Shown: one piece after another, positions 3,001-58,981 of the stretch
Layout of the letters: every line of letters begins with the position of its first letter
How positions within the stretch are numbered: position 1 is the first letter of the stretch
Assembly (NCBI GenBank): GCA_032718475.1
Contig: JAUCBJ010007649.1
Location: 51,577 to 115,576, forward strand
Direction of reading: 5' to 3'
Origin: Nemertoderma westbladi
Taxonomy: Eukaryota; Animalia; Xenacoelomorpha
DNA length: 64,000 nt
Translations under genes and position numbers: made by a program
The notes under the pieces: model-generated
The model's input: only the letters and a program-made list of their open reading frames with translations
The model's database searches: none
What the model was told of the DNA's origin: nothing

Positions 3001-4441
3001 AGTAGCGCCCACCCCTACCCTGGGTTGTAAACGAGGCATACCATTAGTTTGTAAACGAGGCATACCATTAGTTTGCTTTGGATAGGAGTAGCGCCCACCC
3101 CTACCCTCGGGTGTAAACGAGGCATACCATTAGTTTGAAAACGAGGCATACCATTAGTTTGTAAACGAGGCATACCATTAGTTTGCTTTGGATAGGAGTA
3201 GCGCACACCCCTACCCTCGGGTGTAAAAGAGGCATACCATTAGTTTGTAAACGAGGCATACCATTAGTTTGCTTTGGATAGGAGTAGCGCCCACCCCAAC
3301 CCTCGGGTGTAAACGAGGCATACCATTAGTTTGTAAACGAGGAATACCATTAGTTTGTAAACGAGGCATACCATTAGTTTGCTTTGGATAGGAGTAGCGC
3401 CCACCCCTACCCTCGGGTGTAAACGAGGCATACCATTAGTTTGTAAACGAGGCATACCATTAGTTTGCTTTGGATAGGAGTAGCGCCCACCCCTGCCCTC
3501 GGGTGTAAACGAGGCATACCATTAGTTTGTAAACGAGGCATACCATTAGTTTGTAAACGAGGCATACCATTAGTTTGTAAACGAGGCATACCATTAGTTT
3601 GCTTTGGATAGGAGTAGCGCCCACCCCTACCCTCGGGTGTAAACGAGGAATACCATTAGTTTGAAAACGAGGCATACCATTAGTTTGTAAACGAGGCATA
3701 CCATTAGTTTGCTTTGGATAGGAGTAGCGCACACCCCTACACTCGGGTGTAAACGATGCATACCATTAGTTTTCTTTGGATAGGAGTAGCGCCCACCCCT
3801 ACACTCGGGTGTAAACGATGCATACCATTAGTTTGCTTTGGATAGGAGTAGCGCCCACCCCTACCCTCGGGTGTAAACTATCATACCATTAGTTTGCTTT
3901 GGATAGGAGTAGCGCCCACCCCTACACTCGGGTGTAAACGATGCATACCATTAGTTTGCTTTGGATAGGAGTAGCGCCCACCCCTACCCTCGGGTGTAAA
4001 CGATCATACCATTAGTTTGCTTTGGATAGGAGTAGCGCCCACCCCTACACTCGGGTGTAAACGAGGCATACCATTAGTTTGCTTTGGATAGGAGTAGCGC
4101 CCACCCCTACCCTCGGGTGTAAACTATCATACCATTAGTTTACTTTGATTGGAGTAGCGCCCACCCCTACCCTCGGGTGTAAACGAGGCATACCATTAGT
4201 TTACTTTGGATAGGAGTAGCGCCCACCCCTACCATCGGGTGTAAACGAGGTATACCATTAGTTTGCTTTGGATAGGAGTAGCGCCCACCCCTACCCTCGG
4301 GTGTAAACAGGGCATTCCATTAGTTTGCTTTGGATAGGAGTAGCGCCCACCCCTACCCTCGGGTGTAAACTATCATACCATTAGTTTACTTTGGATTGGA
4401 GTAGCGCCCACCCCTACCCTCGGGTGTAAACGAGGCATACC
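1..4441. repeat. Satellite array of 24-bp units (ACCATTAGTTTGTAAACGAGG[A/C]AT) and 62-bp units (24-mer plus a 38-bp insert)
   Basis: Directly visible tandem units; the 62-mer contains CTTTGGATAGGAGTAGCGCCCACCCCTACCCTCGGGTG. 24-mers dominate to about 1370, mixed to about 3750, then pure 62-mers. Confidence 0.98.
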
Positions 4442-5662
4442 TGTAAAAGCCTTTGCTGAATTGCCCCGTTATTTTTATTATCTTTTACATTAAAATACTC
4501 TGTAGTTGATTTAATAAGTGTAAGAGACCGTATTATTACTGTATCGGTGTTTTTTAGAGGATCTAAGAGCTATTTCCTCCGTATGTGTACTGTGAAAGGC
4601 ATAGTTGATGATTCTATGGCAATTCCATGACGCAAAGGGTGATAGCTACTCTTGAACAGTAGTTACTATGACTACGGTTAACAGCTGATATTCATACGTG
4701 TTGATTTTCTTTGTTCTACGGCGTCTCTCAGTTCAGTCAGCCAATCAGAGCATTTTTATGGCTCTTGTAGAGAAATTTCCTAGAAATCACGTAATGCTTT
4801 ATGTGCAGTGTTTACATTCAGTCCTGAGCCAGGAGAGAACGGCTTGGAAATATTTTGTGCCTTTCTGTTTTTAGCTTAACACTAGTAGGCTTAATTATAA
4901 GGACATATATCCGTTATCACACACTGAATCACTGTGCAACTCAACTAAACAAACCAAATCTGCATGTACCATACACTGTGCATACTTTATATTGTTATAC
5001 TGCTATTTACTGTCGGTCCTTCATAATATGGTTGATGAATTATTATATTTGGAATAACGATAAATAACCCCGAAACTCAATATTCTTGATATACCGAAGG
5101 TAAGAGAGAAAGGTTATATATAACGATTGTGACTTATGTTAAGGTGGTTTGAAGTGAATCTAATGTTATTTGATAGACCCTACATGAGTCGGTCCGTGTT
5201 CCTTTTATATGTGACTAAAATCAGTGAAGATCGGCAGATTAGTGTGCAGTATTGTGCAGCATTGTGTATGAGTGAGACTGATAACGAAGCATTTCCTAAA
5301 GAATGCGCCATATATGTGAATTATAACTAAGCCATATCGTTGTGAGTAGTTTAAGTCATAACTCTGTTTATATAGATAGAGCGCCACGTCCTAAAGGAAC
5401 TGTTAATATTCCCCGAAGGTGAATAATATTGTCAGAGATTATATAATACTGTCAGTCGAATAATACATTAGGCTTACCTAGCAATAAGATTAAGCCGTCG
5501 AACCCAATCTCCCGGGTATATCCAGCGGGTGAATGATCGCGCACAGATTGGTTTCGACTAGTGTAGTGAATCAAATACTTGTCATAGGCTAAAAGTGATT
5601 TATTATCTAAAAGACATCCTAATTTGGCGGGTTAAACTGCCAAAGGTCTGAAAGCGCGAACA
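4442..5662 (+). repeat. E1 5' LTR (1221 bp)
   Basis: Direct repeat of 21512-22722 at offset 17060 with about 10 substitutions counted by eye; starts TGTAAAAG, ends GCGCGAACA. Confidence 0.95.
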
Positions 5663-5674
5663 ATAACGGATATA
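5663..5674 (+). promoter_or_regulatory. E1 non-tRNA primer-binding site candidate (ATAACGGATATA)
   Basis: Directly follows the 5' LTR, lacks TGG, and is the exact reverse complement of LTR 4906-4917 (TATATCCGTTAT). Confidence 0.65.
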
Positions 5675-5809
5675 GCTTCTGTATTGCAGTGTAGGCATTA
5701 AATACAGTTTAATATTGTTCTGGTAAGAACAATAACGGATATAGCTTCTTTATTGCAGTAAGCAATAAAGTTGAAAGTACCGGTCAACCGGTAAACCTGA
5801 ACGGTACAT

Positions 5810-8421: not shown

Positions 8422-8547
8422 ACTAAAGATAATTATGCGGGATACACGAGTGAAGAACTGAAGTCTATTGTCGAGTCGCAATGGAACTTCCCCGGACCCG
8501 GACTCCCGTTTGATTTATCAGAAGCTGCCTGGGAAGACATACACCGG

Positions 8548-11500
8548 ATGGGAGTAGCCAAGGAAACCATCGATCCAGCTGTGTGGAAGAGGTCTGCAGC
8601 CGGATACGCACAGGGATTCTTCAGCTCTATGGAGCGAGTAAAAGAACAACTGTTCCAACAACCTCAAGGACCTCAAGAGCAGAGACAACTGCTTTATCAA
8701 GTTAGAGAAAGAATTCTGCGAATCAGGCTAATCTTATCAGCCTTTGAGGAGGCTTCTAAACGAAGACAAGACACGTCGTTGCAAGTTGCCGTAAAGACTT
8801 GGTTTCAACGGGTGAGTCGCCAGGTTCAAGGAACAGCTCAGTGGAAAGCTCAGCTGGAGGAGCGCTCAACCCATGGAGAATCAACAGACGCTACTTTTTC
8901 CCAAGTGGAAAGTGAAGCGATGGCAGAGAAACCGCATAAGAGGGATGCCATTGACATCTATCTGTCAGACTATCAACGTTTTTTAGGTGATGACGAGTTG
9001 AGGAGAAGGTTAGAGGGACTTAGCCCTAATAGTGAAGGAACCAAGCTTGTGTTGGATGCCATCGATGTGGAAATGAGGGCTGCGAACCAGGCTAAATTTG
9101 ATGAACAACTCCGCATCACACGAGTCCAGGAGGAGCAAGTAAAGAAAAAACGTATAGAAGACAGAAAGAAAGCAGCAGTGGTAGCTGCAGAAGCAGAAAG
9201 AAAAGCGGCAGCGGCAGAGGCAGCGGCAGAGGCAAAGGCGGCAGAGGCAGCGGCAGAAGCAAAAGCGGCCGAAGCTGAAAGAAAGGCGGCAGAGGCAGTG
9301 GCAGAAGCAGAACGGAGAGCGACTGAAGAAACCACCCAATTAGAATTGGAAAACATTCAGGAGAATCAAGACTGCATAAATAAACAGTTAACAGCTAGTA
9401 ATATGCAGATGATGAATCGATCTACATATATATATGGATATGGATATACATCATCTGAGGAAGGCGATACCACCGATACTGAAGGCAAGGGAAATAGATC
9501 TCGTCTAAGTAGACGTAAAAGAACATTCCACCGTCAGAAATTGCCTGATTTGCCTCCAGCTGTTAGAAGGCAACTAAATAACACCAACTTAGGTAGTACA
9601 GAGCCCACAGACCAAATAATTAAAATAGAAAGACTCCCTACTATAGTAGATGAGCCTGAAATAATTAGGCCTGTTTTTGAAATCACCCCTTCGGTGATAG
9701 ATACACCTGTGCTCCCTGAAGCTACCTCTAAATTCCCTCTGCATAGCACTAAGCTACCTGTGCCCAGTAGAACTGCCCAGGAGACAGTTCAGGTCCTGGA
9801 CCCCGAGCGAAATATTCATGATTTGTCGCCCATTGTCCCTCGTCCGCCCGCTACAACGTTGGCGACTCCCGCTTCGGCGGTCGAATGGGTGGACGAGAGA
9901 CGGCGGGGGATGGATCTCCTGCTCGGGCAGATGCAGGAGACTGTTCAGCAATTCAAGGGCACAGTAAGGGAAAGTAGGCTAGAGTTGCAAGAAGTGCAGC
10001 AAAGTATCGCGCTAGAACGCGATAAATTAGTAAATACTCAAAGGGGTATACCACCACCCTCGGTAACAATGTGTCAACCTGTTAGGTCTGAAGTATCTCA
10101 TGCGCAAGGTGTGGAGCCTACACGCATATATACCGCTAGCGAAGTAGAAACTCCTATAGTGAACCCTATTAAGGGTAATTATAGACCTGTTGATAATGAC
10201 ATTCCCTATAGACCTGATCATAATCCGAGAAATTTATATACCGATAACTCGATATTAAATAACACGATGGCCCAAGAAAGTTTTACGCGTCAAATGGCTA
10301 GAACCGAAGCCCGGCAAGCGGTAAAGGTGGGAGAGATCGTCAAGTTCAATGGAGATGAGATGAAATGGTTACCTTTTAATGAATATTACAAAGATAACAT
10401 ACAGAACTCTGTACTATCTAATGGAGAAAAACTTAGATACCTCATCGAGTGCTTGGAAGGATCTCCTAAGTTAATGGCGTTAAAGTTTATTGGACATCCA
10501 GACGGATTAAGACAAGTTTGGGATACACTAAACATCAGGTATGGTAATAGGAATAACATCGCTGGGTATTTGTATGCAAAGTTAGTAGCGCCCCGAAAGT
10601 TTATTAGCAGCGGGATTATCGAGTTTTCCGATGAGATACAGGAGATCTGCAGACAATTAGATTGGCTAGGTAAGTCTCATGAGTATCAGAACACTATGGT
10701 TATTAGAGCAGTGGCTTCTACTTTACCGAAGGGTGGAGTAGGTACACGCTGGGATAAGAAAGTGTTATATATGATGGAACAACAACGACGAGACCCTACC
10801 ATGGCTGATCTCATGTCATTCCTAGATGGAGAAGTGAAATTACAGCTCCTGAAACTGTCCAGAGAGAAGACACCGGAAAACAAGGTAAGTGAAAAACCCG
10901 TCTCTAGGAGAAAGGTAACACCAGTGTGTTATACAGACGACGGCGAAAGCCAGACTTCTCAAGGAGAAGATAGCGGGAAAGACACTGATAGATCTTATTA
11001 TGTCAATAAAATGCCTAAAGATCAGGTAAGTAAATTCAAGTCTCGAGCAAATGATCGGAGAGAACAGGTAAGAAAAACTCCTCCCACGTCTCCCAAGAGA
11101 ATTCCGGTGAGAAAGCCCGAAGAAAAGGCAAGTGTACACAATGTGACTCAGATTAAGGTGAGTAACATCAAACCAAAATGTGCGCTATGTGATGGGACCC
11201 ATCGCTTGAATATGTGTGATGAATTTCTAAAGAAATCATTAACAGAGAGACGTGAAGTCATGTGGGACAAGCGGTTGTGTTATAATTGCCTCAGACAAGG
11301 ACATCAACGGCGAACCTGTTACTCAGACATAAGGTGTGCAAAGTGTGGTGCGAAACATCATATCTTGTTGCACGCTGAATTCGATCGAAATAGTCCTAAT
11401 CAGGTAAGTGATTCCGAACTACATGTCCAATTCAGTGATGTGAACGACACTGATCAATCTGAGATGGAAGGATTCTATACGGACGAGTTCTCCGACGAAA

Positions 11501-14500
11501 ACGAATCCTGTTACATGATAAATACCGCAGTGTATCGAGCACTCACATATGAAAAAGATACAGACAGCGACTTCACTCTAACTACTTCTGAGCGACAACC
11601 ATCGTGGAAAGCACCAACTTCCAATGTAGGAATCCGAGAATTTCCTGTAGTCCAGTTACGGGTCCATGGACCTCAGAAAAGCTATATAGTGAACGCCCTC
11701 CTGGACTCCGGCAGCACAGGAACATTCATTGATAAAGAACTAGCCGAAGACATCTTCGCTGGACAACCTAAGTTCCGAACCAAGCTAAATATGTCAGGCA
11801 TTATGCAAGTTTGGAAATCTACAGTAACAGCTGATTATTATGTAGGCGCGTTGTCCACCCCACAAGACGAACTAGGAGAACATAGCATAAGGTCAGTGAA
11901 ATTGGTGGCTATAAAGAACTTCGCTACTACTCAAGCAGACCTTTATAATTGGGACGAGGATGAGAGCATCCAACATCTTAAGATACCTCGATTCCAGACT
12001 GATTATCCTGGAGTGCAAATACTCCTCGGCCAAAACGCGCATGAGGCGCTGGAGACATTGGAGAAACGGCCTGCTCAACCGCAGCCACTACAGACCTATG
12101 CGGTAAGAACTAGAGTAGGTTGGTACTTTACTGGCCCTTCCCGTAGAACACTCAGAGAAAGACTACCGCAAGAGCGCGTCTACCAGGTGAGTGAATGGGA
12201 AGATGATACTAGTGAGGGAGACGATTTAACTGAGGGAACCCCATACTCCTCAGATAACGACGACGTGCACCAGCTTTTTGATGAGGAGAATACCATCGAC
12301 CTCCTTAAGGAAAACGAGGCTTGGCAAAACCAAGTGAACTTATGTCAACTGCTTTATCCAACTGAACGAGAAGCTTATAACGACGAGTTAAATGACGTCA
12401 TTGAGCGTTGTAATGCCAAGACTCGAGATGAACATGCCGTACCATTCTTTACGCAAGAGGCGGTAGAGCCCAATTCCTACGATAAAGCCTTGTCAGTGGA
12501 AGAGGAAAGGGCCAAGCAGATCCAAGAGACAACTACATGTTTCCTCAAAGATCAAGGTAGGTATGAAGTCGGTCTACCTTTCCGCAAGAGAGAACCGAAA
12601 TTCATCAATAACAGACCCTTGGCGGAAAAAAGAATCGCGCGACTCCATCGACGCCTTACGGCTAATTCTTCAGCTAAAGCAATGTACCAAACACAGCTGG
12701 ATAAATTTATTAGTAAGGGATACGCGGAGAGAGTACCGGAAGAAACACCTGTGACTGAAAGAACGTATTACTTAACTCACCATTACGTTCCTAAACCCGG
12801 TAAGCCACATGAAGTGAGAGTAGTGTTTGATGGCTCCGCTCTTTACATGGGTCAATCCCTTAACTCTGAATTGTTACCCGGACCCAACTTGCTTCAATCT
12901 TTGTTGGGAATTCTTTTAAGATTGAGACAATATTCGATTGCTTTCGCCTCCGATATAGAAGGCATGTTCTTACAAGTCAAGGTGTTAGACAGGGATCGAG
13001 ATAGTCTACGATTTCTGTGGTGGCCCGAAGGAGACCTCAACCAGAAACCGGTGGAGTACTGGATGACCATCCAGGCCTTTGGGATAATCTCAAGCCCTTC
13101 CAACGCCTGTTCGGTAGTGCGTACCACTGCAGAGGACAACCGAGAGGCCTTCTCTAAGGAAGTGATCGACAACATCAAGAGAGACATATACATGGACGAC
13201 AATCTGAAGTCCCTTCCATCAGTTGAGGAAGCCATTGAGGTCGCTAAAGGAACGGTAGAGTGCTTAAAAAGAGGTGGGTTTCGATTAACGAAATTCACCA
13301 GCAACTCCCGTGAGTTTCTGGAGTCGATCCCTGCGGAAGATCGAGGGGCGAAAGATCTAGATTTGATCAAAGATGATCTGCCAGAAACCAAGACACTCGG
13401 CTTGAAATGGGACACAGAGCGAGATATCCTGTTTTTCCAGCTAAAACAGCGAGATAATCCAGTTCGAACCAAACGGATTTGCTTAAGTATACTGAGCACT
13501 TATTTCGATCCATTGGGATTTATTAGCCCAGTTATCTTGATTGCTCGTAGTTTGGTACAACAAATGTGGCTTGAAAACCACTCATGGGACGATCCACTTA
13601 AGGGAGAATTATTGAAGAAGTGGATGAAATGGGAAGATTCTCTGCCGGCTATCGAGGATTTTATAATTTCCCGTTCATATTTTGGTCATGTTCTCCCTAC
13701 GTATTCCTATCAACTCCATGTGTTTGGAGATGCCAGCGATATGGGAATAGGTATAGTAGCCTATCTAAGAGTGGAAACTCCGGATGGAATCAAAGTCGCC
13801 CTGGTTACTTCTAAGGCATTAATCAACAACAAGTTGAAAGTTCCTCGAGCGGAGTTAAAAGCGGCTCTATACGCTACAGCCATCGGCCGGAATGTAACCG
13901 AACAGATTGACTATCCATTAGAGAAAACTGTCTATTGGACCGACGCTTTACTCGTGTTAGAGTATATAACCAATGAAGTCTGTCAGTTCAGCGTCTTCGT
14001 TACCAACAGGGTAGCCATCATACTTAGTCGCACGACGATGGACCAATGGAGACATTGCCCCGGAACGATTAATCCAGCAGACATCGCTTCCCGAGGAGCG
14101 ACTCCAAAGGAATTGGTAAATACTCCCGAATGGTTAGGTGGACCCGACTTTCTCTACAAAGAAGAAGAAGAATGGCCTCCCCATCTCACAACAGCAGAGA
14201 TCAGACAGGCCAAGGGAGCGGAGAAAGTTAAACCCAAAACTCGAGCGAGTAAATCGAAGTTGTTTAAACCTGCGGTTGATCTATCTGTATTATTTACTTC
14301 CGGAGAGGATGCTTTGGATCCGAAACCCACCGCCACGACTAAAGAAGTCTTGGAAATCCGTGACAAGGATTGGAAATCTGGACTACCAGATATCGCGCAA
14401 GGACTCTCACCCCTCTTGCAGAGAGCGATACGTCACTACAGCTCCTGGAATCGGCTCTGTAAAGCCGTCACCTATTTAAAACGATGTTTTCATCATCGTT

Positions 14501-16074
14501 ACTCCGGGACAAAGACCCATAGTGATGATGCTCCATCAACATCTGCACGAGTCCATGTTGTTAAAGATCTTCCCCAATACAAGGTATCCGACAGGTTTCT
14601 AAAGGAGAAGATCAGTTACCAGGAGCATGATGAAACCAACAAACAGATGCTGAGACTCCTACAATGCTATGAGGATCCCGATAAGTATTTCCTGTTGTTA
14701 AGAAATCCGCAGATGCGCTTAAGGGATCGCTTCTCTAGTACCATGATAGATGGGTTAATACGTGTTGGAGGCAGGCTCACCAACGCCCCATTATCCTTTG
14801 ACACTAAGTTTCCCATACTCATTAGAAATCTTGACATACAAATCAAGATGATTGTAGACGTTCATAGCAAACTGTATCATGCTGGAAGAGAACGAGTTCT
14901 GAGCGAAATTCGAACTCGCTACTATTTTTATAAACCCCGTAGGGCTCTGAACCAAGTCCTTAGGAACTGCATACCCTGTAGGAAAGCATTCAGTAGGCCT
15001 TTGACACAGCGAGAGGCAGAATTACCTAGGGAAAGAGTAAGCTTCTACGAACCACCCTTTACTAATACCGGTGTGGATTTATTTGGCCCTATTGAAGTAT
15101 ATCGTGCCCGGACTATAGTCAAGAGATGGTGTGTCATCTTCGTTTGTATGACTTGTAGAGCTATCCATCTCAATATGGTAAATGATCTATCCACCAACAG
15201 CTTCGTGTTGAGTTTACGACGACAGATCGCTCGCTTCGGAACCAGTAACACGATGAGATCGGATAAGGGAACGAACTTCATTGGCGCCAACAACGAAATT
15301 CAAGCTTACGTAAAGGACTGGAACAAAAGACAGGTGGACGATCAGCTAAAGATAACAGCGTCTAGCTGGACCTTCAATGCCGCCGACGCCCCTTGGTGGG
15401 GAGGAAGTTGGGAGAGATTGATTAGGAGCGTGAAGACTGCGTTCCACTTTATTGTACCTTGTCGCGCTTATCTCACCGACGAACTATTGCGGACGTTAAT
15501 GGAGGAAATCGCCGCCTATCTCAACGAAAGACCGCTTATGCCAGTCTCTTCAAGTCCTGATTCCCTGGAAGCGCTAACACCCGCGCACTTTCTACTGAAG
15601 AAACCCGTAGCCATGCTCCCACGATCGGAGATCACAGACGGAGACGAATACTGCCGTCGAACCTGGCAACTTATGCAGTTGCTATCCCGTCGTTTCGCTG
15701 ACCATTTCGAGAAACATTACCTGCCCACTCTACAACTTCGAACTAAGTGGTTTGCGCAGCAAGAAAACGTCAGCGCTGGAGACATGGTGCTTATTGTGGA
15801 CCCCGATCTCCCACGTAAGCGATGGCAAACAGGACGTATCATCGAGACTTATATCTCGAGCGATGGTTTGGTGCGATCAGTAGAACTCGTCGTCATGCGG
15901 CGTAACTATAAGAAACCAGGGATAGTCTTTGAGACTCAACAGCTCAACCGCCCAGTGGGTCGTTTATGTTTACTGGAAAGAGACAGAGAGCTCTCCGGAA
16001 ACTATGGAAGGCAAGAAACGCTTCCCACGACCACTTCCCTAATCCAACCGACATCTAGGGACTCCCCAACTTAA
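8548..16074 (+). CDS. gag-pol: E1 BEL/Pao Gag-Pol polyprotein (Gag with Cys/His knuckles, aspartic protease, RT, RNase H, integrase)
   Basis: CYNCLRQGHQRRTC knuckle; LLDSGS; YMDD; FGDASD, PRAEL, WTDA, NPADIASRG; HxxxxH/CxxC; GVDLFGP, SDKGTNF, WWGGSWERL. Confidence 0.97.
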   Translation: MGVAKETIDPAVWKRSAAGYAQGFFSSMERVKEQLFQQPQGPQEQRQLLYQVRERILRIRLILSAFEEASKRRQDTSLQVAVKTWFQRVSRQVQGTAQWKAQLEERSTHGESTDATFSQVESEAMAEKPHKRDAIDIYLSDYQRFLGDDELRRRLEGLSPNSEGTKLVLDAIDVEMRAANQAKFDEQLRITRVQEEQVKKKRIEDRKKAAVVAAEAERKAAAAEAAAEAKAAEAAAEAKAAEAERKAAEAVAEAERRATEETTQLELENIQENQDCINKQLTASNMQMMNRSTYIYGYGYTSSEEGDTTDTEGKGNRSRLSRRKRTFHRQKLPDLPPAVRRQLNNTNLGSTEPTDQIIKIERLPTIVDEPEIIRPVFEITPSVIDTPVLPEATSKFPLHSTKLPVPSRTAQETVQVLDPERNIHDLSPIVPRPPATTLATPASAVEWVDERRRGMDLLLGQMQETVQQFKGTVRESRLELQEVQQSIALERDKLVNTQRGIPPPSVTMCQPVRSEVSHAQGVEPTRIYTASEVETPIVNPIKGNYRPVDNDIPYRPDHNPRNLYTDNSILNNTMAQESFTRQMARTEARQAVKVGEIVKFNGDEMKWLPFNEYYKDNIQNSVLSNGEKLRYLIECLEGSPKLMALKFIGHPDGLRQVWDTLNIRYGNRNNIAGYLYAKLVAPRKFISSGIIEFSDEIQEICRQLDWLGKSHEYQNTMVIRAVASTLPKGGVGTRWDKKVLYMMEQQRRDPTMADLMSFLDGEVKLQLLKLSREKTPENKVSEKPVSRRKVTPVCYTDDGESQTSQGEDSGKDTDRSYYVNKMPKDQVSKFKSRANDRREQVRKTPPTSPKRIPVRKPEEKASVHNVTQIKVSNIKPKCALCDGTHRLNMCDEFLKKSLTERREVMWDKRLCYNCLRQGHQRRTCYSDIRCAKCGAKHHILLHAEFDRNSPNQVSDSELHVQFSDVNDTDQSEMEGFYTDEFSDENESCYMINTAVYRALTYEKDTDSDFTLTTSERQPSWKAPTSNVGIREFPVVQLRVHGPQKSYIVNALLDSGSTGTFIDKELAEDIFAGQPKFRTKLNMSGIMQVWKSTVTADYYVGALSTPQDELGEHSIRSVKLVAIKNFATTQADLYNWDEDESIQHLKIPRFQTDYPGVQILLGQNAHEALETLEKRPAQPQPLQTYAVRTRVGWYFTGPSRRTLRERLPQERVYQVSEWEDDTSEGDDLTEGTPYSSDNDDVHQLFDEENTIDLLKENEAWQNQVNLCQLLYPTEREAYNDELNDVIERCNAKTRDEHAVPFFTQEAVEPNSYDKALSVEEERAKQIQETTTCFLKDQGRYEVGLPFRKREPKFINNRPLAEKRIARLHRRLTANSSAKAMYQTQLDKFISKGYAERVPEETPVTERTYYLTHHYVPKPGKPHEVRVVFDGSALYMGQSLNSELLPGPNLLQSLLGILLRLRQYSIAFASDIEGMFLQVKVLDRDRDSLRFLWWPEGDLNQKPVEYWMTIQAFGIISSPSNACSVVRTTAEDNREAFSKEVIDNIKRDIYMDDNLKSLPSVEEAIEVAKGTVECLKRGGFRLTKFTSNSREFLESIPAEDRGAKDLDLIKDDLPETKTLGLKWDTERDILFFQLKQRDNPVRTKRICLSILSTYFDPLGFISPVILIARSLVQQMWLENHSWDDPLKGELLKKWMKWEDSLPAIEDFIISRSYFGHVLPTYSYQLHVFGDASDMGIGIVAYLRVETPDGIKVALVTSKALINNKLKVPRAELKAALYATAIGRNVTEQIDYPLEKTVYWTDALLVLEYITNEVCQFSVFVTNRVAIILSRTTMDQWRHCPGTINPADIASRGATPKELVNTPEWLGGPDFLYKEEEEWPPHLTTAEIRQAKGAEKVKPKTRASKSKLFKPAVDLSVLFTSGEDALDPKPTATTKEVLEIRDKDWKSGLPDIAQGLSPLLQRAIRHYSSWNRLCKAVTYLKRCFHHRYSGTKTHSDDAPSTSARVHVVKDLPQYKVSDRFLKEKISYQEHDETNKQMLRLLQCYEDPDKYFLLLRNPQMRLRDRFSSTMIDGLIRVGGRLTNAPLSFDTKFPILIRNLDIQIKMIVDVHSKLYHAGRERVLSEIRTRYYFYKPRRALNQVLRNCIPCRKAFSRPLTQREAELPRERVSFYEPPFTNTGVDLFGPIEVYRARTIVKRWCVIFVCMTCRAIHLNMVNDLSTNSFVLSLRRQIARFGTSNTMRSDKGTNFIGANNEIQAYVKDWNKRQVDDQLKITASSWTFNAADAPWWGGSWERLIRSVKTAFHFIVPCRAYLTDELLRTLMEEIAAYLNERPLMPVSSSPDSLEALTPAHFLLKKPVAMLPRSEITDGDEYCRRTWQLMQLLSRRFADHFEKHYLPTLQLRTKWFAQQENVSAGDMVLIVDPDLPRKRWQTGRIIETYISSDGLVRSVELVVMRRNYKKPGIVFETQQLNRPVGRLCLLERDRELSGNYGRQETLPTTTSLIQPTSRDSPT

Positions 16075-17721
16075 TATCGTTCGGAGTGGGCGTGTGACTC
16101 TATTATTTTATATTATTTTATTATTTTTATATTTATGTATGTATTACTATGTAATTTTATTATAATCGTTTTATTTAATTTAGTAGAATATTATTTAGCG
16201 ATTATTTAGTAGAATAGTGCAATATGTTCATGTTATTGCGTACGTAATTACTTATATTATATTTAGTGCGACGGCGAGAAATAATTCTTTTTCTCTTTCC
16301 TTACTGTTCGTATTATATTATAAATACGTAACTACAGTAAGATGAAATGTCCGTACTTATTAAAGTACAATAAAGCCACTACTATATTCAAGTATTATTG
16401 GTAGGCAGAGTATTAGGAATGCAAAGTTCAGATCCTCGTGTCTCGGCTAAACCAAGCTCTGGGTAGACCTTGGAAACGACTTGCCTCTTCACACTGACAT
16501 TGCTTCGTGCGATATTGCTCTCATACCGTATATTAAATAATACATATAGTAGCGTGAGGTCCCTCTAACAGTAGCGTGAAACGCAAATAAATCTGTTAAA
16601 CCCTTTGACCATCTGTAATTCTAGTCGATTAAGATATCGCGGCACCCACCGATATACTTGAAAGACAAATTCTAGAATCAGTGGTTAACGTCCCCAGACA
16701 AGTTCTGGAATAAATCGGTGCCCATCTCAAATATTAATTATTTAATATTTGCAAATCTAATAAATCAAAATCTGTAAAATTCAAATCCTTCAACAATTCT
16801 AGTCAATTAAGATATCGTAGCATTTACCGATATTCTTAAAAAGACAATTGTCATAGAATTCAGGATCTTGTGTCCCCAGACATATTCTAGAATCAAAATA
16901 TGTCCATCTAATTAGTAAATAATAAAATTTCAGGGAATAATTTAAATTCATGCCTTTTAATGAATTTAATAAATTGCCATTTTTTGCGCAATTTATAACA
17001 TTCCCAAAATTCCATTAATTAATAGATCACGGGAGCGGAGATTTATCTTCTTATGCGTATGAGTGTGCGAAAGTCTCCCAAACATAGTCAATAGCCGATA
17101 AAATTCATAAAGTCATGTATCAAACAGGACATTGACTATTAAAGAATTACTATTAAATAACATCCCAGATCTGTATGCATTGGAATTACCCTAATTCTAC
17201 CGCTAGCTTTGCATAATGTCACCATAGCAACAACCACGCTAGAATTAGAATTGAGTTAAAGGAACAATAGAAAGCTTGTCCCATTGAATAGCATAGGGAA
17301 TAAATAGCGCACTACTAGTATCCAAGGATACATAATAATACAGTGACATTCTGGAAGGCATTGACTAACAGACAAATGGCCCGAATGTGCGTAGTTGTGA
17401 CCAGTTGTGTGGTATTTGTGAGTTTATAGGTGAATGTTACTGCTAAAGTGTGTTTACAGTAGCTAGTCGCAATCGTGAAAGTAACCTAACTCTCCAAGGA
17501 AAACCTGAAGTACATCTAAGCCTTTGGGACGGACAGTGGAGTGACTTGTGCCGGTTATCGTTGTCGTTGTACGGCTACGTCGTTGGCGAAAGTATAGCGA
17601 CAGCGGTACATCGGCGCTGAGAATCTCACACTGTCCGGGGGCAAGGGAGAAGTAGGCAGCGACGCCCGCTTGCCTAATAAATATAAACTCATTATAATAT
17701 TGGTGAACTCGTATAGCAGAT

Positions 17722-19911: not shown

Positions 19912-19920
19912 ACTACGCGA

Positions 19921-28527: not shown

Positions 28528-28670
28528 TGATGAATTATTTCACTATAAGGTAGCATTTGTAGTTTAACTTTAACGTAAAAACTTTTGAAAATCCGACGTA
28601 TTTTGATTAAGTTACAGTAATGTAATATGCCTATTTATATTTGTACACATAAAACCCTTAGGTACTCTCG

Positions 28671-28740
28671 TGGCGTAGTGGTCAGATGGTTAAGGCGTTG
28701 GTTACATTACGTAGGTTACGAGTTCGAATCCCAGTCGGGA
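28671..28740 (+). other. tRNA-derived sequence with Pol III A and B boxes inside the E2 LTR (second copy 54787-54856)
   Basis: TGGTCAGATGGTTAAGGCG resembles the Ser/Leu tRNA D-arm; B-box GTTCGAATCCC; T-run at about 28749; no clean cloverleaf. Confidence 0.6.
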
Positions 28741-28787
28741 AATTTGTATTTTGGGGCCATTTATTTTCGTTTAGGTGCTAATTGGTA

Positions 28788-29056
28788 GGCCAATGAGAAG
28801 CGTACAACGTAGCGGATAATGAGCCAGGCCAATCATAGGGCATAAATTACCTTATTGCTCAAATGTGAGGCAGTGGAAAATTCTGTTAGGATTCCATGTC
28901 CCAGATTAGTGTAAGGGCCGGACTGCGTTGAACGATGAGCTGGGCCAATCATAGGGCACGAAACACTTTATTGCTCAATTGTGAAGCTGTGGAAATTTCT
29001 GTTTAGTTTCCATGTGCAATTTCTAGTATAAAAGGCCGGTTTGCCTTCGGTTATCA
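28788..29056 (+). promoter_or_regulatory. E2 LTR Pol II promoter: three GGCCAAT boxes, TATAAAA (29027-29033), predicted start at about 29056
   Basis: CCAAT boxes near 28790, 28829 and 28945; a TCA initiator-like site 29 nt after TATA. Confidence 0.7.
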
Positions 29057-30807
29057 TGTTACACACACTTCCGTTGTAATTTCTCATAACGTTACTCTAT
29101 CAGTTTATTCTTGTAAAATTAGTTAATTCGGTTTCTTGTTGAAACTTACTTTGATAAATCCTTTGTAAAACTGTAAATATACTGCAATTTCCTGACATGT
29201 TTTCTTTTGGTCCGACTTCGGGACAGCCGAACACCAGGGAGATGGCAGCCTAGACCGTTAGGCCGTAAGCAACGCAGGGAAGAGATGTCCACAACACGCT
29301 AGCGCCCACATTGGATTGACCGCGCACCCCCTTTGCCCTTCGAAATGCTCAACTTGCCATGCAGCGCCCGTTTTGTGAGAAGGTAAGACTTTGTTCGACG
29401 CCCTTGCCCGCCGTAAGACCTATAGATCAGGGTAAGCGTGACACCGCACTGGACGCCGCAAATTTAGGATCAAATAATTATATCCAGACACCCCCCCCCT
29501 TCTTGTCAGTCCTACGAACCCCTGGGTTAACCTGTACTTCCTACAGGTGCGAACTATTGCCATTCGTCAGTACGCGAGTACACATTAGGCACGGACAGCA
29601 TACGTTCCATAATTTAGTGATTCCTAGCACTGACTGTTTGGTACCGGTTCGCTTTGTAGAACGTACATTAGTACCCCCCCCCCCCTCCTGTCTGGAGTTA
29701 GCTATTTGATCAGGCAAGGAGCATTTCTGCTACCGGCACACTGCTTGGCCTAGGGAGGTTTATTAATATCCTACCGCGCCTTGCCACGTACTGATAGGTA
29801 TTGCTGCTAACTACCGCAGCAACAAAGTTCTAGAATTAAATTAGTATACCAGATCAGCTAACGTACGGTAGCGATTAACCCCTATTCTTATCTTACAACC
29901 AGAATCTGGTATTAGTGCCGATCACGGGTGTAGTTACTAACACTGTGGTTGCCCATTGGGTTGTGGATAGGAAGGAGAGAGCTTTGACGTCATTCGTGAG
30001 TATAAAGTTCTACAAACGCGACTAGTTTATTTTAGTAGCTAGCGCACGGTATCATTTTAGTCAGAAAATCACTAAAACCTAGTAAAAGGAATTACTCGAA
30101 ATTGTTTTATTTGTAACACACCCACACACACACGCCCTAAAACATATTGCCCTTAAAGTTCTACTAGCTATAGCGTACTATACATTACTTTAGGTGGAAA
30201 TTATCTGTATTTGTATAATTAGGATCTGATTTAGTTGCGGCAAAATAAGGAGTATTTCACTTTCGTTATTAAACTGTTGTTTGTCTGGACAACGGTATTG
30301 TTACATTTAGGCCTGACCTTTTAGACTGATTTCGTACAGGGGGATCAGTTATTGTTACATTTAGGTACGACCCCTTTTCGACTGATTTAGGACTGTCAGT
30401 GTTGTTACGCTAGGTCTGTTAACCCACTAGCTCGTATATAACCCATATAAATCACACCGCGGCAAGTTACTGTATTTAGGACTGTCAGTGATAGTTAGGA
30501 TTCGCTGCGCGGGGATTGTTTTCCCGTGAGTTTGGTCTGTTACGGTAACTGTACATCTGCCTCACCGGTTAGAGGACAGGTATCCTTCTGTCTAGTACGT
30601 AGGCATTCGACCCGCTCACGTACATAGAATAGATACAAGGCTCTGTTCCTCGCCAGTAGTCGTTTGTGTACTATATCTGTTTGTTTAGATATCCTGGACT
30701 GGGATTTGTTGTCAGATACTGTACAAGCCCGTATACATTACTAGAGTCTCATAGTAAGATACATCGTTACTAGGATCTGGTAAGCGGTATACTACTGGAC
30801 CCTTACA

Positions 30808-30817
30808 GTAGGAAGTA
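30808..30817 (+). promoter_or_regulatory. E2 non-tRNA primer-binding site candidate (GTAGGAAGTA)
   Basis: Directly follows the LTR; exact reverse complement of LTR 29535-29544 (TACTTCCTAC). Confidence 0.62.
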
Positions 30818-31769
30818 TTTTATATAAATTAGTATATAGTGCTTCTATCATAGTGTATAGTATTCCTACTACAGTAGGAAGTATATTTTCCTTTAGTTTC
30901 GATTGTTAGCTATTGAAAGTAGGAGATATTTAAAATTTAAGGTTAGTAAATTTAGTAATTTAGAACGTCCCCTGCTTCAGTAGGCTTTTAGGGTAGCTAG
31001 TACTTTCGTATTTAATATTTGACTAGCTAACAGTTAGTTTGTAGCACTTTGTTTTACGCCGTGTGTGTGCGGTGTTACTTTTCGGTACTTGAAAAGGTAC
31101 ATAGGGTTTAAAGACCAATTTGTATCGGTACCTAGGAAGAATTTTCGTAAGCGTAGAAGTAAAACTCTCACCTTCGACCTTTTCAGGACTCAAGGACTCA
31201 TTTCTGGACCGCTTCGAGGATTAGACCGCTTTTCGCAAAGTTTGGGAGACAATAAATTCGTCCGCGCCGCCGAAAAACGGAAAGACCCACGTCCGGTTTG
31301 TATTTGGGAATTTGTACGACTGGAAGATCAAAGGAACGTAAGTTTTACGACTCGCGTCGTTCAAACTTAAGAAAGCACAGTAGTACTCAAAATTTGTGGG
31401 TTTCACTGTCTATTAGTAGTGTTGTTGGTACATATTTTCCCTTTAGACGTTGCTGTTTGGCCTATTGTTTTACTTGTTGATCTATATTTTGTTAACGTAT
31501 ACCGTTATCTCACTTATTCGTACAAATTTAGCCGGTAGGCTAGATTACTACTTATTTTATTATATACCTTGTTAGTTTTATTTGTACCGGTTAGGGTATA
31601 TATATGATATATATATATATCAAGGTAAGTTTGACATTTGTGCATTTCGACATTTTGACATTTCGACATTCTGACTTGTTGATTTATTTGTACCGGTTAG
31701 GTAAGTTTGACACTTCAACATTCAGACACTTGACATTTTATTACCCGTACTTGACGTATATAATAAGAC

Positions 31770-34700
31770 ATGAGTGACACACCCCATTCGACGAGATACC
31801 CACCTACCGACTATGACTCGTGCGACCCGGACAGATCGACAGTAGACGAACCGAGAAGGAGAACCCGAGATTCCACCGATGTCACACCGCTTGCGTCGCC
31901 GGTACCCCGAACGGAAATACCGGAAGCCGCAACGCGTGGCGACGGCAGAATTGAAGATTTCCTTACCGTCCCGCAGACTAGATCGCGGGAACCGGACATG
32001 GTAAGTTCGACTGGAAGCCAGGAGAACGTTATTAGAAGTATAGGAGGACACATGGCCCAGATTACTCGGAACCTCGGAGAAGGTTTTCGCGTTTTACGCG
32101 AGTTAACCGCCCCGATGTCGAGATACGAGTTCTACACCTTACAGGTAAGGATAGAAAGTAGGGTACATGCCTCCGTAGATAAACTTAAAGGTTTGCACGA
32201 ACTTGCAGAGTTGCGTGGCGACAACTTTACTCAGGTAAAGATAGTGGATAAATTGGTAAGTGCGAGAGAAAGCCTTATCCAGTTTAAGTCGGTAATAAGC
32301 TTGGCTCAACAGGAGCAGTTCGACCAACTGCTAGGTGAGTCAGTTTCGGACGCGTTGTTACAACCCGAAGAGGAAGAAGAACTCTACTGCCTGGACGGAA
32401 GGTTGGAAACGCTGACCAATTTTCTTCGTAGATGCGGCGTACCGATCGACGAACCGGAAGTCGAACCGCGAGGGACGACGGAAGTTCTCACTACGGAAGG
32501 CTCGCGAGCCTACCAACATCCACCACTGGATAGATCGTTCGTTAGCGTACGGAGCGACGTTGGCAACGTTGGCGACGTTAGTAGAACAGCGTCTGGAATT
32601 ACTCGACAACAACAGGAGGTTGCACGCCGACAACAAGTCGCCGAGGAAGAAGCGCGACACCAGATGGCACAGATCGCCATCGAAGGAGAGAAACAACGTA
32701 GAGAAGACGAGGCAAGAATTGCACAACTCAAGGCGCAAGCTGAATTCGAAGCATCAGAAATGCGCAGACTGGAGGAGGACTTAGCGCGAGAAGCGGCCGC
32801 GGCGGCAGCAGCTGACGAGTTAGCACGGAAGAAAGCAGCATCCGACGCTCGTGCCAAGTTGGAGGCGCGGCAAATAAACGCTCGATTAGCTATACAGGAA
32901 GCGGAATTAGCGGCACAACAACAGGACGCAGATCGACGCGAAAGGGAGATGCAACTACAGTTCGAATTGAATCGTAGATCGCGCGAGACAGCGAACGCGC
33001 AAGCGGACCTCGAACTCGACGCGAGAGATAGATCTATGAGATCGCGGACTGGACACGACTTGTCTGCCCTGGATCGTATGGAAGCTCGATATCGCGGAAT
33101 ACAGAAGCGGATCGAGGAAGGAAGCGTGGGAGCGATAGATCGAGGAGAGGAGTTCGTCGAGGATTACTGTAAACGTTTTCCCCAAGTTATTCCTATGCTC
33201 AAACCCACGACTCCGATAAAACCGGTCTTCGTTACGAAACCTAAGGAAATAACGCCTGTGCGTTCGACGCAAGGCAACAGGTTTGTTGTGACGGAAATAC
33301 CGCAACCTAGGGCGACTTCATCGCCAATTTTAGCAGGTAACATAACTAGTCCACCTACAGTAAGTCGTAGTCTACTTGTAGGAAGAGAGGAACCTGCGTT
33401 TATGACCATTAAACAGGTGAGTAAACCATTACAAGTTAAACCTGTGACGTGCTGTGCAAATCCAGTTATTTACAGACCGACTACGAAACCCGACTATTTC
33501 ACTCGACCGTTGACACAATGTTCGACGCAACCTACGACTTCGTGGAAGGCTTGCGAGCCTACCGAACTACGAAGGAGGATGGATGTGGGTAGTACTCACG
33601 GGATCGGACAACGTATAGCGAGACCTACGACTTCGTGGAAGGCTTGCGAGCCTACCGAACAACGGAGAGCCGTAGATTCCGGACCACAACGGACGAGACC
33701 CAGGATAATACGCCGGACGCGAACCCGCCAACCACCTTATCCGGACGACAGCGATTCATCCAGTGACTCGGAGTCGACGGAACGGGAAATATTCCGTACT
33801 GGAGCGGCAGCGGCAGCGGATTACAAACAGGAGGAACGATCGACGAACCCATACATCGACAATCCACCTCGAGAAACACCCCAACAGAAACCCACGTTGC
33901 AACCAGCGGAAGCGATCAGCACCAACAGACTCGCCGAAATAATGCGACCTGTAGCGGACCGACTAGCTCAGATAGAAGAGCGACTCGAAGCGCAACCGTC
34001 GGATCGATCACGAACCAGCGTGGAGTTGGAACAACCTAGACAACATCGACCACCGAGGAGAGAACAGGAGACTAGACGGACTCCGACACATCGAGAGGAA
34101 GATCCCGTTAATAATTCCTACCGACGAACAACGCGCGGAAGGGAGCGACTGGACGACGCCACCGAACAGGGACGCGGACAGTTGGATTTAGTTAGCGAGA
34201 TTGCGAAATTCGCGGCTAGACACGGATTACCGGCACAGCAACCGCCGAAGTTCTCTGGCAACGCGAAACACTGGCGCACACTGGTAGACTACGTAGAGTC
34301 CCAGATCGCTAAGTGTGCTTTCACCTCGACGGAGAAGTTTAACTACTTGCTCCAAGTCCTGTCTGGTGAGCCGAAACGATTAGCGGAAACCTTTATTGGT
34401 GTTCCCGATGCCTTTGAGTTGGCGTACGACCGTTTGTATTCGATTTACGGCGGTAACGTCGCCATGGCTAAATCCATCATTGAAGACCTCTGCAGAGGAG
34501 GCAACATTTCGAGACCGATCGACCTTTTACGACTCGCGGACGAAATAAAGAACGCTATAGGGACTTTACGGTCCATTGGACAACTCGAGTACGCTAACGC
34601 ACCGACGGTTCTCATTCGAATAATCGGTCGACTTCACCATCGACTACGACGAGAATGGCGACGCATCGAGTACCAACGCGAAGAGGCCGGAGGGTTATTA

Positions 34701-37700
34701 AAACTCACCGATGTCTATCAACTTATTTCACGGGAGGCCGTGATCGAGACTCGATCGAACTATACCGATCACCATATCGCGGCGGAAGGGATAACTGTTT
34801 CTGCGCCGAATCGGACTAAACCTTTTCCGACGAACGCGAAGGCCGTTACTTACGCCACCCCTACTGAGACTTCTAAAGTTCTGACGCCTATCGGCACCAC
34901 GCAGCCACGACAACAGTTGCCGGCGGACTTTGTGGGATGCTCATACTGCGAGCGGAACGGCAGAAACCATAGCGGACATAAACTACGTGCATGTCGCGCT
35001 TTTAAAGAGTTAGGGATCGAGGAAAGGAGACTCCAAATCCGATCTCTAGATTCCTGTTGGAGATGTATGAAGCCAGGACACGTCCGGAAGGATTGCCCGA
35101 GCGATGATACATGTTCTCTGTGTGGACGTAACCATGACGCGTTGCTTCACACAACCAGTCATACTCCGACCAGACGCTTTCGACGAGAGCATCCCGATAA
35201 AGCGGCTAGATGCGACGCGCTTTATAAGGAGCGTGCGCCGCGCGAGATCCGTACCTTTTATACCGACTGTATGGATCAGTCAGGATCATCGGACGAGGAC
35301 GAGGAGGAAGACGACACTTTCTACGTGCATGCAGGTGAGGAACAGCCATCGATAACGCTCCTCACACAGAACCAATTGAAAGGGTTTAGCGTGATTCCTA
35401 TAAAGATTACCGGAACCCGAGGGAGCAAGCGTATATACGCCATCTTAGACTCTGCGTCATCGCATAGCTATGTCGACGAACAAGTAGCCGACGTAGTTAC
35501 GGACTTGAGTCAAGGTAAGACTGCTCAGTATACTGTAAGCAGCATGCATGGTAAGAGAGCGATTCCTGTGACAAGAGTAAAACTAACTTTAGACACTCTT
35601 CTTTCCAAAGCGGAACACAGCAAGGAGGAGCGCTCATTACTTCCGGTAAGAAATTTGACCTTTGCAGCTACGAAGGACTTTAGTAACTTGCTCGGCCCTG
35701 TGCCAGAGCAATCACCGGAAGATCGTAAGTATTTCCGACACCTTGGAATACCGGAATGTCCTGTCAATTATCGTTCCATTGCGATGTTAATTGGGACAGA
35801 CCAGTTTAACTTACATCAGGTATGGGAGACACGCCCATCTGTTATTACAGCGGGCAACCCCTACGCATGTAGAACTCCCATAGGTTGGTATACTAGAGCA
35901 CCAATACGTTCACTAGAGGTAAGTGACCAGGAGGACGACGTTTTGAGTACGTGTAGTTTATTGACTAACACGATAGATAATTCTCCTTCACACTCCCGTG
36001 GTCCAATTGTACGGACGGCACTACGACAGACTTGCGTCACTAACGCAGACGCCACCGATACTGACGTAACCGATCTGGACACGACCATACGGACCTCTGA
36101 CTTACAACTACTTGCAGTAGACCAGGTTGTATTGACTACTGAAGACCTGAGGGTTGTTGCTGTGGATGACTCGATGAACGAGGATTTTGGAAGGCTTGCG
36201 AGCCTACCGAAAAATCCGAAGGTCATTGACCCCACCCACCAGGCTTCGACACCGGTCGTTGATCTTGGAAGGCTTGCGAGCCTACCGATAGATCAAGAAG
36301 TTGTCAAACCGCCGCACGACAATTCGACGCCGACTAGTGACACCGGAAGGCTTGCGAGCCTACCAGACACATTGACACTAGCCACCGCAGCGGACGAAGA
36401 CGTGGACGAGGACCATGGCGCAGTGCAAGCAGCGCTTGACCGACTGCTGACTGAACGGACCATACAATGGTTGGAACAGGACTCAGCAGAACCCGGTAGT
36501 TACGAGACCGCTATGTCAGAACAGGAAAAACGGTCATTAAATATTATGAGAGATACCATTCGCCAGACCGCGAATGGCCACTATGAGGTTGGTATGTTGT
36601 GGCGCGATGGACAACCTAAGCTCGTTAACAATTACCCGCTTGCTTTGAGGCGACTCAAATCAATAAGGCAGCGATTGTTGCGAGACGAGACGGCCCATAT
36701 GCAATACAATGCACAACTTCAGACGTATCTCCAAAAGGGATACGCCATTAGGATGTTAAATCCTGAGGTAACTACAGACCAGACATATTACCTGCCACAT
36801 CATTTTGTTCGACACCCGGACAAACCTGGCAAGGTGCGTGTAGTCAACGACTGCGCTGCGCTTTACCAAGGGATGTCTATGAATAGCGAACTGATGGACG
36901 GGCCGAATATGAATAATTACCTCATGGGAGTCCTAATGCGTTTTAGACAACGCAAAGTGGCTTTCACCTGTGACGTAGAGGCCATGTTTCACCAGGTTAA
37001 GGCTTTGGAGCGGGACAGGGACAGTTTGAGGTTTCTTTGGTATCCGGACGGAAACTTACAACTTCCGCCAGAAACTTACCAAATGCAGGTAAGAGTATTC
37101 GGAGCCAGGGACAGCCCCAACTGCACCATGTACGCCTTGAAGCAGACAGCATTAGACAGACGAGACCAATTTGACCCAGAAGTAGTTCGGACCGTGGAAC
37201 GAGATTTCTACGTGGATGACGGCCTCAAGAGTTGTGACACCTTGGAGCGCGCTACAACCGTAGCACACCAACTCCAGGATTGTCTCGCTGAGGGCGGATT
37301 TCACCTGACGAAGTTCGCTTCCAACGAACCCGAACTGGTGAACTCATTTGACCCGACGGATCGTAGCGGAGGTGACTTGGACTTAGACCTAGAACCTCTG
37401 CCGACGACCAAAGTATTAGGACTTAGTTGGGACCCTAACACCGACAATTTTAGGGTACGTGTAAGGTCCAACGACCAGACTAGACCTCTCACTAAGAGGA
37501 CTTGCTTATCGACCATGAGTCGATTGTATGACCCATTGTGTTTCATTAGTCCAGTGATCCTGCATGCTAGGATCATACTCCGCAGCATTTGGCAAGCCGG
37601 ACTGGAATGGGACGATCCCATCCCAGAAAAGTTAGCTGAGCGATGGAGGGACTGGGAAGCCCAACTGACGTTCCTACAAGACTATACCATACCAAGGGTA

Positions 37701-41492: not shown

Positions 41493-42021
41493 TGTTAGCT
41501 TATCCAATTCCGCTAACACAAACCCATAGAGTGAGCCATAAAGCAATATTGGGAGCCTATTGTCAGCCCAGTAAACGGGGACAATAGGCCCCAAAGGAGA
41601 CACACACAATAAGGGTCAGGGGTTACTCCCCTGACAAGAGAGAGAACAGCAAGGGCGAAGGGAAGCACTTCAGAGGGGGGCAAAGGGTGCCAACAGGGGT
41701 ATCAACCAATCAGAGGGGGGAAAGGCATCGATTGAGTAGCAATAAGGCCACCGTGCAATATAACCAGTTACCAGTAATCATACCGGTCAGTTATTCAGTT
41801 TACTCAGTCAGATCAGTAGGGTGGAACGGGGACTTCTGTCACCGTCCGCTACCGCCATCTATATATTACCTATTGTGTCATACTATATTATATCAACTGT
41901 CAGACTATTATACCTTTATACATATTACCCAACATCAGAACTCTTTTACCTTTCACACACGGCGGGGACGCGTGGATAGAAAACCCAAACGGATAAACCG
42001 GGATCCGTAGATCCCGTCACA
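41493..42021 (+). repeat. E3 5' LTR
   Basis: TGTTAGC...CCCGTCACA; direct repeat of 48275-48803. Confidence 0.97.
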
Positions 42022-42030
42022 GTGACAGAA
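42022..42030 (+). promoter_or_regulatory. E3 non-tRNA primer-binding site candidate (GTGACAGAA)
   Basis: Exact reverse complement of LTR 41834-41842 (TTCTGTCAC). Confidence 0.6.
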
Positions 42031-42150
42031 CTAGATCCGCCCAGCTGCCCTGACAGAGATAGAATCCTAGCAGCTGCCCTAACAGTCTGACAGTGATAGA
42101 ACTAGATCTAACCAACTGACAGACTGTGGCTGCCAGCTACCAAAGGCGAG

Positions 42151-48803: not shown

Positions 48804-48808
48804 AGCCA

Positions 48809-52286: not shown

Positions 52287-52290
52287 TTAA

Positions 52291-58770: not shown

Positions 58771-58981
58771 CTGATCCTGCCACAGTGGAGAAGGTGGATT
58801 GGGTGGTGGCAAGCGAACATCTTCAGATGGTGAAATATCTGTTATACTTGTTCTTGGTGGGGTTATGGTAGAGTGAGCATGGTTGAAGTTCTGGTGATTT
58901 GAGTACTTATTGATGACTGGGATGATGTAGAAACTTGTTCTAGTACTACTAGTATCGGCATGCTGCATTGCAGCTGCATTT

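Follow-up and report, generated by a model that had tools for sequence, protein, structure and literature searches.

The elements and their setting

The window analysed here, a 64,000-nucleotide stretch of a Nemertoderma westbladi contig, holds three LTR elements, which we term E1, E2 and E3, the last of them nested within E2; all of their features described below lie on the forward strand. Comparison with the 3' LTR copies sets the ends of the 5' LTRs at 5662 (E1), 30807 (E2) and 42021 (E3). The 5' LTR of E1 (4442..5662), which has TG...CA termini, is 98.9% identical to its partner at 21504-22722, and the element is flanked by a 5-bp target duplication; that of E2 (28528..30807) is 97% identical to its partner at 54644-56922, without a target duplication; and that of E3 (41493..42021) is identical to its partner at 48275-48803, with a 5-bp target duplication. 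The gag-pol ORFs of E1 (8422..16074; DUF1759, Peptidase_A17, Integrase_H2C2 and DUF5641) and of E2 (31767..40628) are recognizable through their Pfam domains as BEL/Pao, both containing the Pao-type domains DUF1759, Peptidase_A17 and DUF5641 with an integrase at the C-terminus, and among the matches listed all of the at least 120 relatives of the RT-RH region (39-46% identity) contain PF05380. E1 and E2 are BEL/Pao LTR retrotransposons, members of the family Belpaoviridae. Like other BEL/Pao elements they combine a single gag-pol ORF having DUF1759, Peptidase_A17, Integrase_H2C2 and DUF5641 with TG...CA LTRs and, in E1, a 5-bp target duplication; they differ in the want of a TGG-type primer site, in their very large size (E1 spans about 18 kb), in long additional 3' ORFs without a family match, and in the doubled junction described below.

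Neither of the two ORFs of E3 has a Pfam match, and the element lacks pol; since it nevertheless has a gag-like Cys/His stretch in common with a protease-bearing fragment at 57073-57261 (93% DNA identity), it is probably a non-autonomous, pol-less derivative. That fragment belongs to a segment (56923-58750), abutted by the 3' LTR of E2, which is related to the internal region of E3 (93% over 189 nt) and retains the aspartic protease domain. E2 is itself probably a chimera or recombinant of two insertions or subfamilies, and the differences between its LTRs are concentrated at 29056-29110, directly after a TATA-like box. The present copy of E1 looks defective: its 3' LTR (about 21490-21515) is without its first letters and is not preceded by a polypurine tract, and its third ORF enters the LTR and is shorter than the E2 counterpart.

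Several further features of the locus were observed. A 24/62-bp satellite (1-4441 and 22723-28527) is the insertion site of E1 and of the 5' end of E2; as both adjoin the same satellite repeat motif, a target preference is possible. The U3 of E2 contains a tRNA-like sequence (28665-28740) with motifs resembling an A-box and a B-box; it may represent the head of a SINE or a promoter for polymerase III, and was called by neither ARAGORN nor Rfam. Rfam returned nothing credible in the LTR and leader of E1 or E2, and no tRNA gene was found in the window. On the minus strand at 58800-59750 lies what is presumably a decayed fragment resembling a non-LTR reverse transcriptase, with a weak DUF6451 match. 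The long extra 3' coding region common to E1 and E2 (17707-21519, 48793-51033 and 52239-53987) is 34% identical over the part compared, carries zinc-knuckle-like motifs, and is interrupted in both elements, in E1 by a stop and in E2 by insertions, among them 163-bp tandem units with inverted arms at 51249-51996. A resemblance of this ORF to a DEDDy 3'-5' exonuclease, and with it a role in primer trimming, for which a precedent appears in the cited part of PMC5408684, is unsupported: there was no Pfam, PDB-sequence or homologue match, the only match in the search for the extra ORF being repetitive and apparently spurious, and the structure model had a pLDDT of 34.

The LTR junction is present twice

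In each of the three elements the letters that span the end of the 5' LTR and the start of the primer-binding site recur downstream in the leader. In E1 the first copy, comprising the last 5 nt of the LTR and the primer-binding site, occupies 5658..5680 and the second 5727..5749 (+69; 23/23 identical); in E2 the copies lie at 30804..30818 and 30870..30884 (+66; 15/15); and in E3 they lie at 42019..42037 and 42090..42108 (+71; 18/19). Scored over a uniform 20 letters, the junction recurs at 20/20, 18/20 and 18/20 positions in E1, E2 and E3, respectively. The preliminary description had reported this duplication with a conserved spacing; all of its coordinates are borne out, and the second copies do lie 66-71 nt downstream, but the regularity is less clean than was claimed, with weaker third copies at +111 in E2 (13/16) and near +28 to +32 in E3 (11/16 ungapped). 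Other tandem repeats are also present in these leaders. To gauge the background, we counted how often sampled positions of the same element have a copy with at least 18/20 matches within 25-250 nt: this was the case for 11/1712 positions in E1 (0.6%), 12/1669 in E2 (0.7%) and 126/858 in the repeat-rich E3 (15%), the product of the three rates being about 7e-6. Given this background, the occurrence of the duplication at the LTR end in all three elements is therefore not due to chance.

Complementarity between the primer site and the LTR of each element

A TGG at offsets 0-5 after the LTR, by which tRNA-type sites are defined in the cited section of PMC6317226, is absent from all three elements. 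In each of them the longest complement in the LTR instead begins at the first base 3' of the LTR (12, 10 and 9 nt), with unrelated letters from one element to the next, and this is the geometry of a putative primer with its 3' end at the LTR boundary. The predicted self-primer of E1 (4906..4917) is a 12-nt exact complement flush after the LTR, and the predicted duplex spans 18 nt with a 2x2 loop, a length equal to that of the 18 identical letters. In E2 an unspliced 10-nt complement of the primer-binding site (29535..29544) lies inside a small hairpin of its own, and the predicted self-primer of E3 (41834..41842) is the exact complement of the 9 nt that directly follow the LTR; in no case did any of 100 null positions reach an equal length. 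The LTR of E3 contains in addition an 11-mer (41896..41906) that is the perfect complement of 42084-42094, running into copy 2, with 0/200 other leader 27-mers having as long a match. As given in the part of PMC6317226 that deals with the matter, self-priming is called from an LTR complement of at least 10 nt starting 0-5 nt after the 5' LTR; E1 has 12 nt, E2 has 10 (11 and 15 if spliced), and E3 has 9, one short yet above all 100 null positions. We accordingly consider it quite probable, from these complementarities, that the elements are self-primed.

For E2 we predict a GC-AG intron of 326 nt within the LTR (29184..29509), the splicing of which is deduced from the sequence. Its removal would join 29175-29183 to 29510-29515, creating a 15-nt complement of copy 2, of which 11 nt match copy 1. 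The predicted donor is a weak GC site and the acceptor is strong and pyrimidine-rich; the 11-nt match to copy 1 taken alone is reached by 5/100 null positions, and the 6 nt contributed by the second exon fit the 5-7 nt pattern of the relatives discussed below. When every donor-acceptor pair was tried in the same way, no spliced primer in E1 or E3 improved on the unspliced match. E2 is thus the only element with two primer-like sites in its LTR; candidates for such a second site in the LTRs of E1 (5343) and E3 (41881) were no better than shuffles. Promoter-like motifs would place the transcription start upstream of the primer end, by about 130 nt in spliced E2 and by about 50 nt in E3. The primer site of E1 is preceded, at a distance of only 4 nt, by a TATA-like hexamer at 4896; if this is the real TATA box, the 5' copy of the primer would be untranscribed.

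Conservation, pairing and folding of the second copy

We compared the two copies across a core fixed beforehand as the ACA plus the letters perfectly paired with the primer. Identity between the copies is 40/41 in this core, against 47/80 aligned columns in the downstream flanks (Fisher p 1e-6) and 40/85 upstream; unrelated 25-mers average 42%. The combination of a kept core and drifting flanks argues for selection on copy 2. According to the cited portion of PMC3187697, direct repeats are readily deleted by retroviral reverse transcriptases, more so with stem-loops between them, the rates quoted there being for longer repeats; the persistence of copy 2 in the face of such deletion suggests that it confers a benefit, and together with the pattern of conservation this argues against its being a neutral leftover. 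The earlier proposal of a backup or decoy primer site fits these observations, in that it is the primer-paired core that is kept while the flanks drift, but it overlooked the identity of the likely primer, the element's own LTR rather than a tRNA.

The predicted primer duplex of E1 is about as stable on copy 2 (-17.7 kcal/mol) as on copy 1 (-17.4 kcal/mol). In E2 the predicted spliced primer forms 15 perfect pairs with copy 2 (-19.0 kcal/mol) versus 11 with copy 1 (-17.7 kcal/mol), and in E3 the duplex with copy 2 is much weaker (-12.2 versus -21.2 kcal/mol), although the single difference in that copy still pairs with the primer as G-U. Modelled folding gives a mixed picture of primer docking. 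For spliced E2, and for two of the three starts assumed in E1, the predicted docking site is copy 1 as long as copy 2 has yet to be transcribed (P 0.81-0.96); thereafter it is mostly copy 2 (0.86-0.98), with one truncated E1 fold divided 0.50/0.43. From start 4860 the probability for E1 is about 0 for both copies, and in E3 neither copy exceeds 0.02 at any of the 12 boundaries.

A local hairpin is predicted over copy 2 in all three elements. The arms complementary to the junction that had been described for E1 (5713..5721) and E2 (30863-30869, masking copy 2) are present, but that of E2 forms 7 bp with a 4-nt loop and not 8 bp with 2 nt; the hairpin of E3, which encloses copy 2 within 42082-42127 through pairing of 42082-42089 with 42120-42127, had been overlooked. 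Compared with shuffles, only the E2 segment is more stable (z -3.0, as against -1.0 for E1 and -0.3 for E3). The pairing of these arms with copy 1, on which the suggested conformational switch depended, appeared nowhere among the MFE, centroid and up to 6 suboptimal structures per element.

Distribution among related elements

We compared E1 with contigs of four public runs (X1, X3, X4 and X5) to survey its family. The sequence of both junction units is covered in all four. Single-copy forms also occur: X3 has three such joints, X1 has one joint together with 6 contigs, and in X4 the main junction contig is of this kind, single-copy forms being the main form there by contig depth (16.6 of 20.1), which is not copy number. 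Go-back joints in the same family suggest longer arrays. Copy 1 is variable at 5668 (16% and 12% of depth in X1 and X3) and at 5670, and one low-depth X4 contig whose junction is of the copy-2 type has changes at both of these positions, which would be expected were copy 2 to follow copy 1, though this contig is not linked to the primer sequence. Among the X5 contigs listed, at least 7 leave E1 at 5662-5666 and none at 5731; an LTR ending at copy 2 was seen neither there nor in any of the three elements, and no junction remnants of the kind expected had the LTR ends crept were found inside U5.

For more distant comparisons we assembled 80 BEL loci from metagenome contigs and inspected the 18 with LTR pairs. 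With L006, L037 and L070 set aside for their unmappable ends, 15 relatives were retained, which include three without a clean CA end (L048, L055 and L075) and two pairs of near-copies (L041/L045 and L072/L073). A second junction copy is absent from all 15 (best 10-14/20). Across all 80 loci, many of them without a 5' leader, ACA-anchored repeats occur only inside ORFs or at 3' ends, and a viral contig collection yielded no relatives. In a quick version of the tree, built from 42 of the 80 rows with midpoint rooting, E1 and E2 are sisters (SH-aLRT 99) on long branches (1.28 and 1.2 changes per column), a pairing that long-branch attraction could produce; the doubled junction would either be old in the E1/E2 lineage or have arisen more than once. 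Absence of the duplication from related elements had been named at the outset as evidence that would count against the interpretation, and to a degree this is what we find, in the 15 distant relatives and the single-copy forms of the E1 family, while the doubled junction is kept in E1, E2 and E3. Because of these absences, we regard the second copy as a dispensable trait of a lineage and not as a general requirement.

The self-complementarity of the primer site is much more widespread. Self-complements of 10-15 nt at offsets 0-3 are present in 11 of the 15 relatives, with at most 1/100 null positions as long; three of these are unspliced, and eight (L002, L005, L008, L015, L041, L045, L072 and L073; 10-15 nt) are built across predicted GT-AG introns within the LTR, 67-164 nt in length, the second exon contributing 5-7 nt. 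The remaining four relatives have no self-complement, one of them having a TGG-type site; in L054, on a deep branch, such a site lies 5 nt after the LTR (about 61-80). Judging from these sites, self-primed and tRNA-primed BEL elements apparently coexist in the same sample, and the proportion suggests that self-priming is common in marine BEL/Pao elements.

Comparison with known systems

Self-priming is described in the cited sections of PMC7175516, PMC4600332 and PMC6317226 for Tf1, Tf2 and Tj1 of the Tf1/sushi group of Ty3/gypsy, in which LTR RNA of the element itself, and no tRNA, pairs with the primer site over about 11 nt, and is predicted there for the plant Tcn1 and TAR lineages; in Tf1 the primer is freed by RNase H cleavage at the duplex edge (as outlined in PMC7175516). 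The present elements resemble that group in having next to the 5' LTR a primer site complementary to their own LTR RNA. They differ in that the domains and relatives of E1 and E2 are those of BEL/Pao and not of the Ty3/gypsy chromoviruses, in that the putative primer appears, from the predicted start sites, to be internal to the transcript and not its first 11 nt, and in that it is predicted to be splice-built in E2 and has a binding site that is present twice. Second primer-related sites have precedents, at least in the portions of PMC1635307 and PMC3592414 cited here: Drosophila gypsy has two tRNA-Lys sites of which only the LTR-adjacent one is indispensable (PMC1635307), and the bipartite PBS of Ty3 and the CYC5/CYC3 elements of Ty1 are comparable. 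The second sites of those elements are described as lying at the 3' end of the RNA and as binding another part of the tRNA or pairing RNA to RNA, whereas in E1-E3 a second copy of the entire junction follows 70 nt downstream and would bind the same letters.

Our search of the literature, within which most subscription journals did not fall, found neither an account of self-priming in BEL/Pao nor one of a junction duplicated in tandem by nature. In 2004 Voronin and Pathak reportedly observed frequent dual initiation in retroviral vectors engineered to carry two primer-binding sites; those vectors are artificial and tRNA-primed, whereas E1-E3 are natural and probably self-primed.

Possible roles of the second copy

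We propose, tentatively and with somewhat less than even confidence, that copy 2 is a selected second dock that competes for a self-primer made from the element's own LTR, its exact role, as we infer it, being as follows. The 5' part of the RNA, in E2 after splicing, would fold back onto the primer site and be cleaved where the duplex ends, the probable agent being the RNase H of the element, as it is for Tf1; the freed primer would then start minus-strand DNA at copy 1. Copy 2 imitates the whole junction, including the terminal ACA, and so could hold the same primer. Copy 1 would account for most of the starts that reach the genome. Were synthesis occasionally to begin at copy 2, the DNA end would still be CA and the LTR would be lengthened by about 70 nt, a gain that would revert in the next cycle; such starts would also recopy copy 2 from the primer and thus keep the match. 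They must be rare, because no LTR ending at copy 2 was seen. We prefer a second dock because it needs the fewest extra parts, and it explains the matched core, the retained ACA and the free flanks together.

A related and rather unlikely reading is that copy 2 parks the self-primer non-productively, so that the RNA stays uncut and translatable until a Gag chaperone in the particle moves the primer to copy 1. The equilibrium folds of E1 and spliced E2, which move the primer from copy 1 to copy 2 although the mapped LTR ends all lie at copy 1, are what such parking predicts, and a gate of this kind might be useful in that losing the capped 5' end would stop translation. Yet the shift is not seen in E3 and depends on the start site in E1, the retention of the unpaired ACA is left unexplained, and relatives do without copy 2. 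No more probable is a fuller two-site switch, in which the self-made primer (made by splicing in E2) would be caught at the LTR end during transcription, parked on the mimic junction 70 nt downstream and handed back for DNA synthesis; were it true, two copies of a single primer site would decide whether the RNA is translated or copied. Copy 2 might alternatively have no job of its own, being repeatedly generated when reverse transcriptase, at the 5' end of a leftover template made up of the primer site and a few U5 letters, switches to another RNA at a point about 70 nt further downstream. The homology begins 3-5 nt before the primer site and extends only downstream, as the footprint of such a jump should, and the one-copy forms and go-back joints of the E1 family, the weak third copies of E2 and E3 and the other tandem repeats in the leaders are all in its favor. 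We nevertheless judge this by-product improbable: a neutral duplicate should decay evenly, contrary to the contrast between core and flank (40/41 versus 47/80; Fisher p 1e-6), the E2 copy fits the predicted spliced primer better than copy 1 does, and the duplication is absent from 15/15 relatives that should have had the same opportunity.

Other roles appear still less probable. Aid to plus-strand transfer, already raised in the preliminary description, would have the plus strong-stop DNA (LTR end plus primer copy) gain 3-5 bp more at copy 2 than at copy 1. It directly explains the retained ACA, TACA and GAACA, the homology offered by self-primers is just 9-15 nt, and single-copy deletions, its expected side product, are observed; but regular use would delete the unit, whereas the skipping joints in X3 sum to about 1,160 against a depth of 22,700-75,000 at 5676-5681, a contig depth that is not copy number, and we think a landing pad of this kind quite improbable. 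Even fewer grounds exist for a role in circularisation, in which copy 2 would dock the 3'-LTR primer copy of the genomic RNA and bring the strand-transfer acceptor next to reverse transcriptase, like CYC5/CYC3 of Ty1 (precedents in the cited parts of PMC3592414 and PMC1635307). With copy 1 blocked, the 3'-LTR segment of E1 does dock on copy 2 (-11.5 kcal/mol; 0/40 shuffles as strong) and E3 has its extra 11-bp complement running into copy 2 (0/200 null), but no such docking is found in E2 (36/40 shuffles as strong) or E3 (6/40), leaving one element of three and making this very unlikely. Least credible of all is that the sites bind a host tRNA, tRNA half or other small RNA with the LTR match being incidental: some copia elements are primed by tRNA halves, according to the relevant part of PMC6317226, but TGG is absent at offsets 0-5 in 3/3 elements, and three different sequences match their own LTRs flush with the end, as do those of 11/15 relatives, eight of them across splice junctions.

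Implications

The doubled site is a real and testable trait of this lineage. To prime itself, an element has to cleave the capped RNA from which it is copied, and its primer homology is just 9-15 nt; a natural second primer site that three families retain but some copies lack offers a built-in comparison for the timing of the cut and the choice of the start. Annotation pipelines that demand a tRNA-type site will misjudge such elements.
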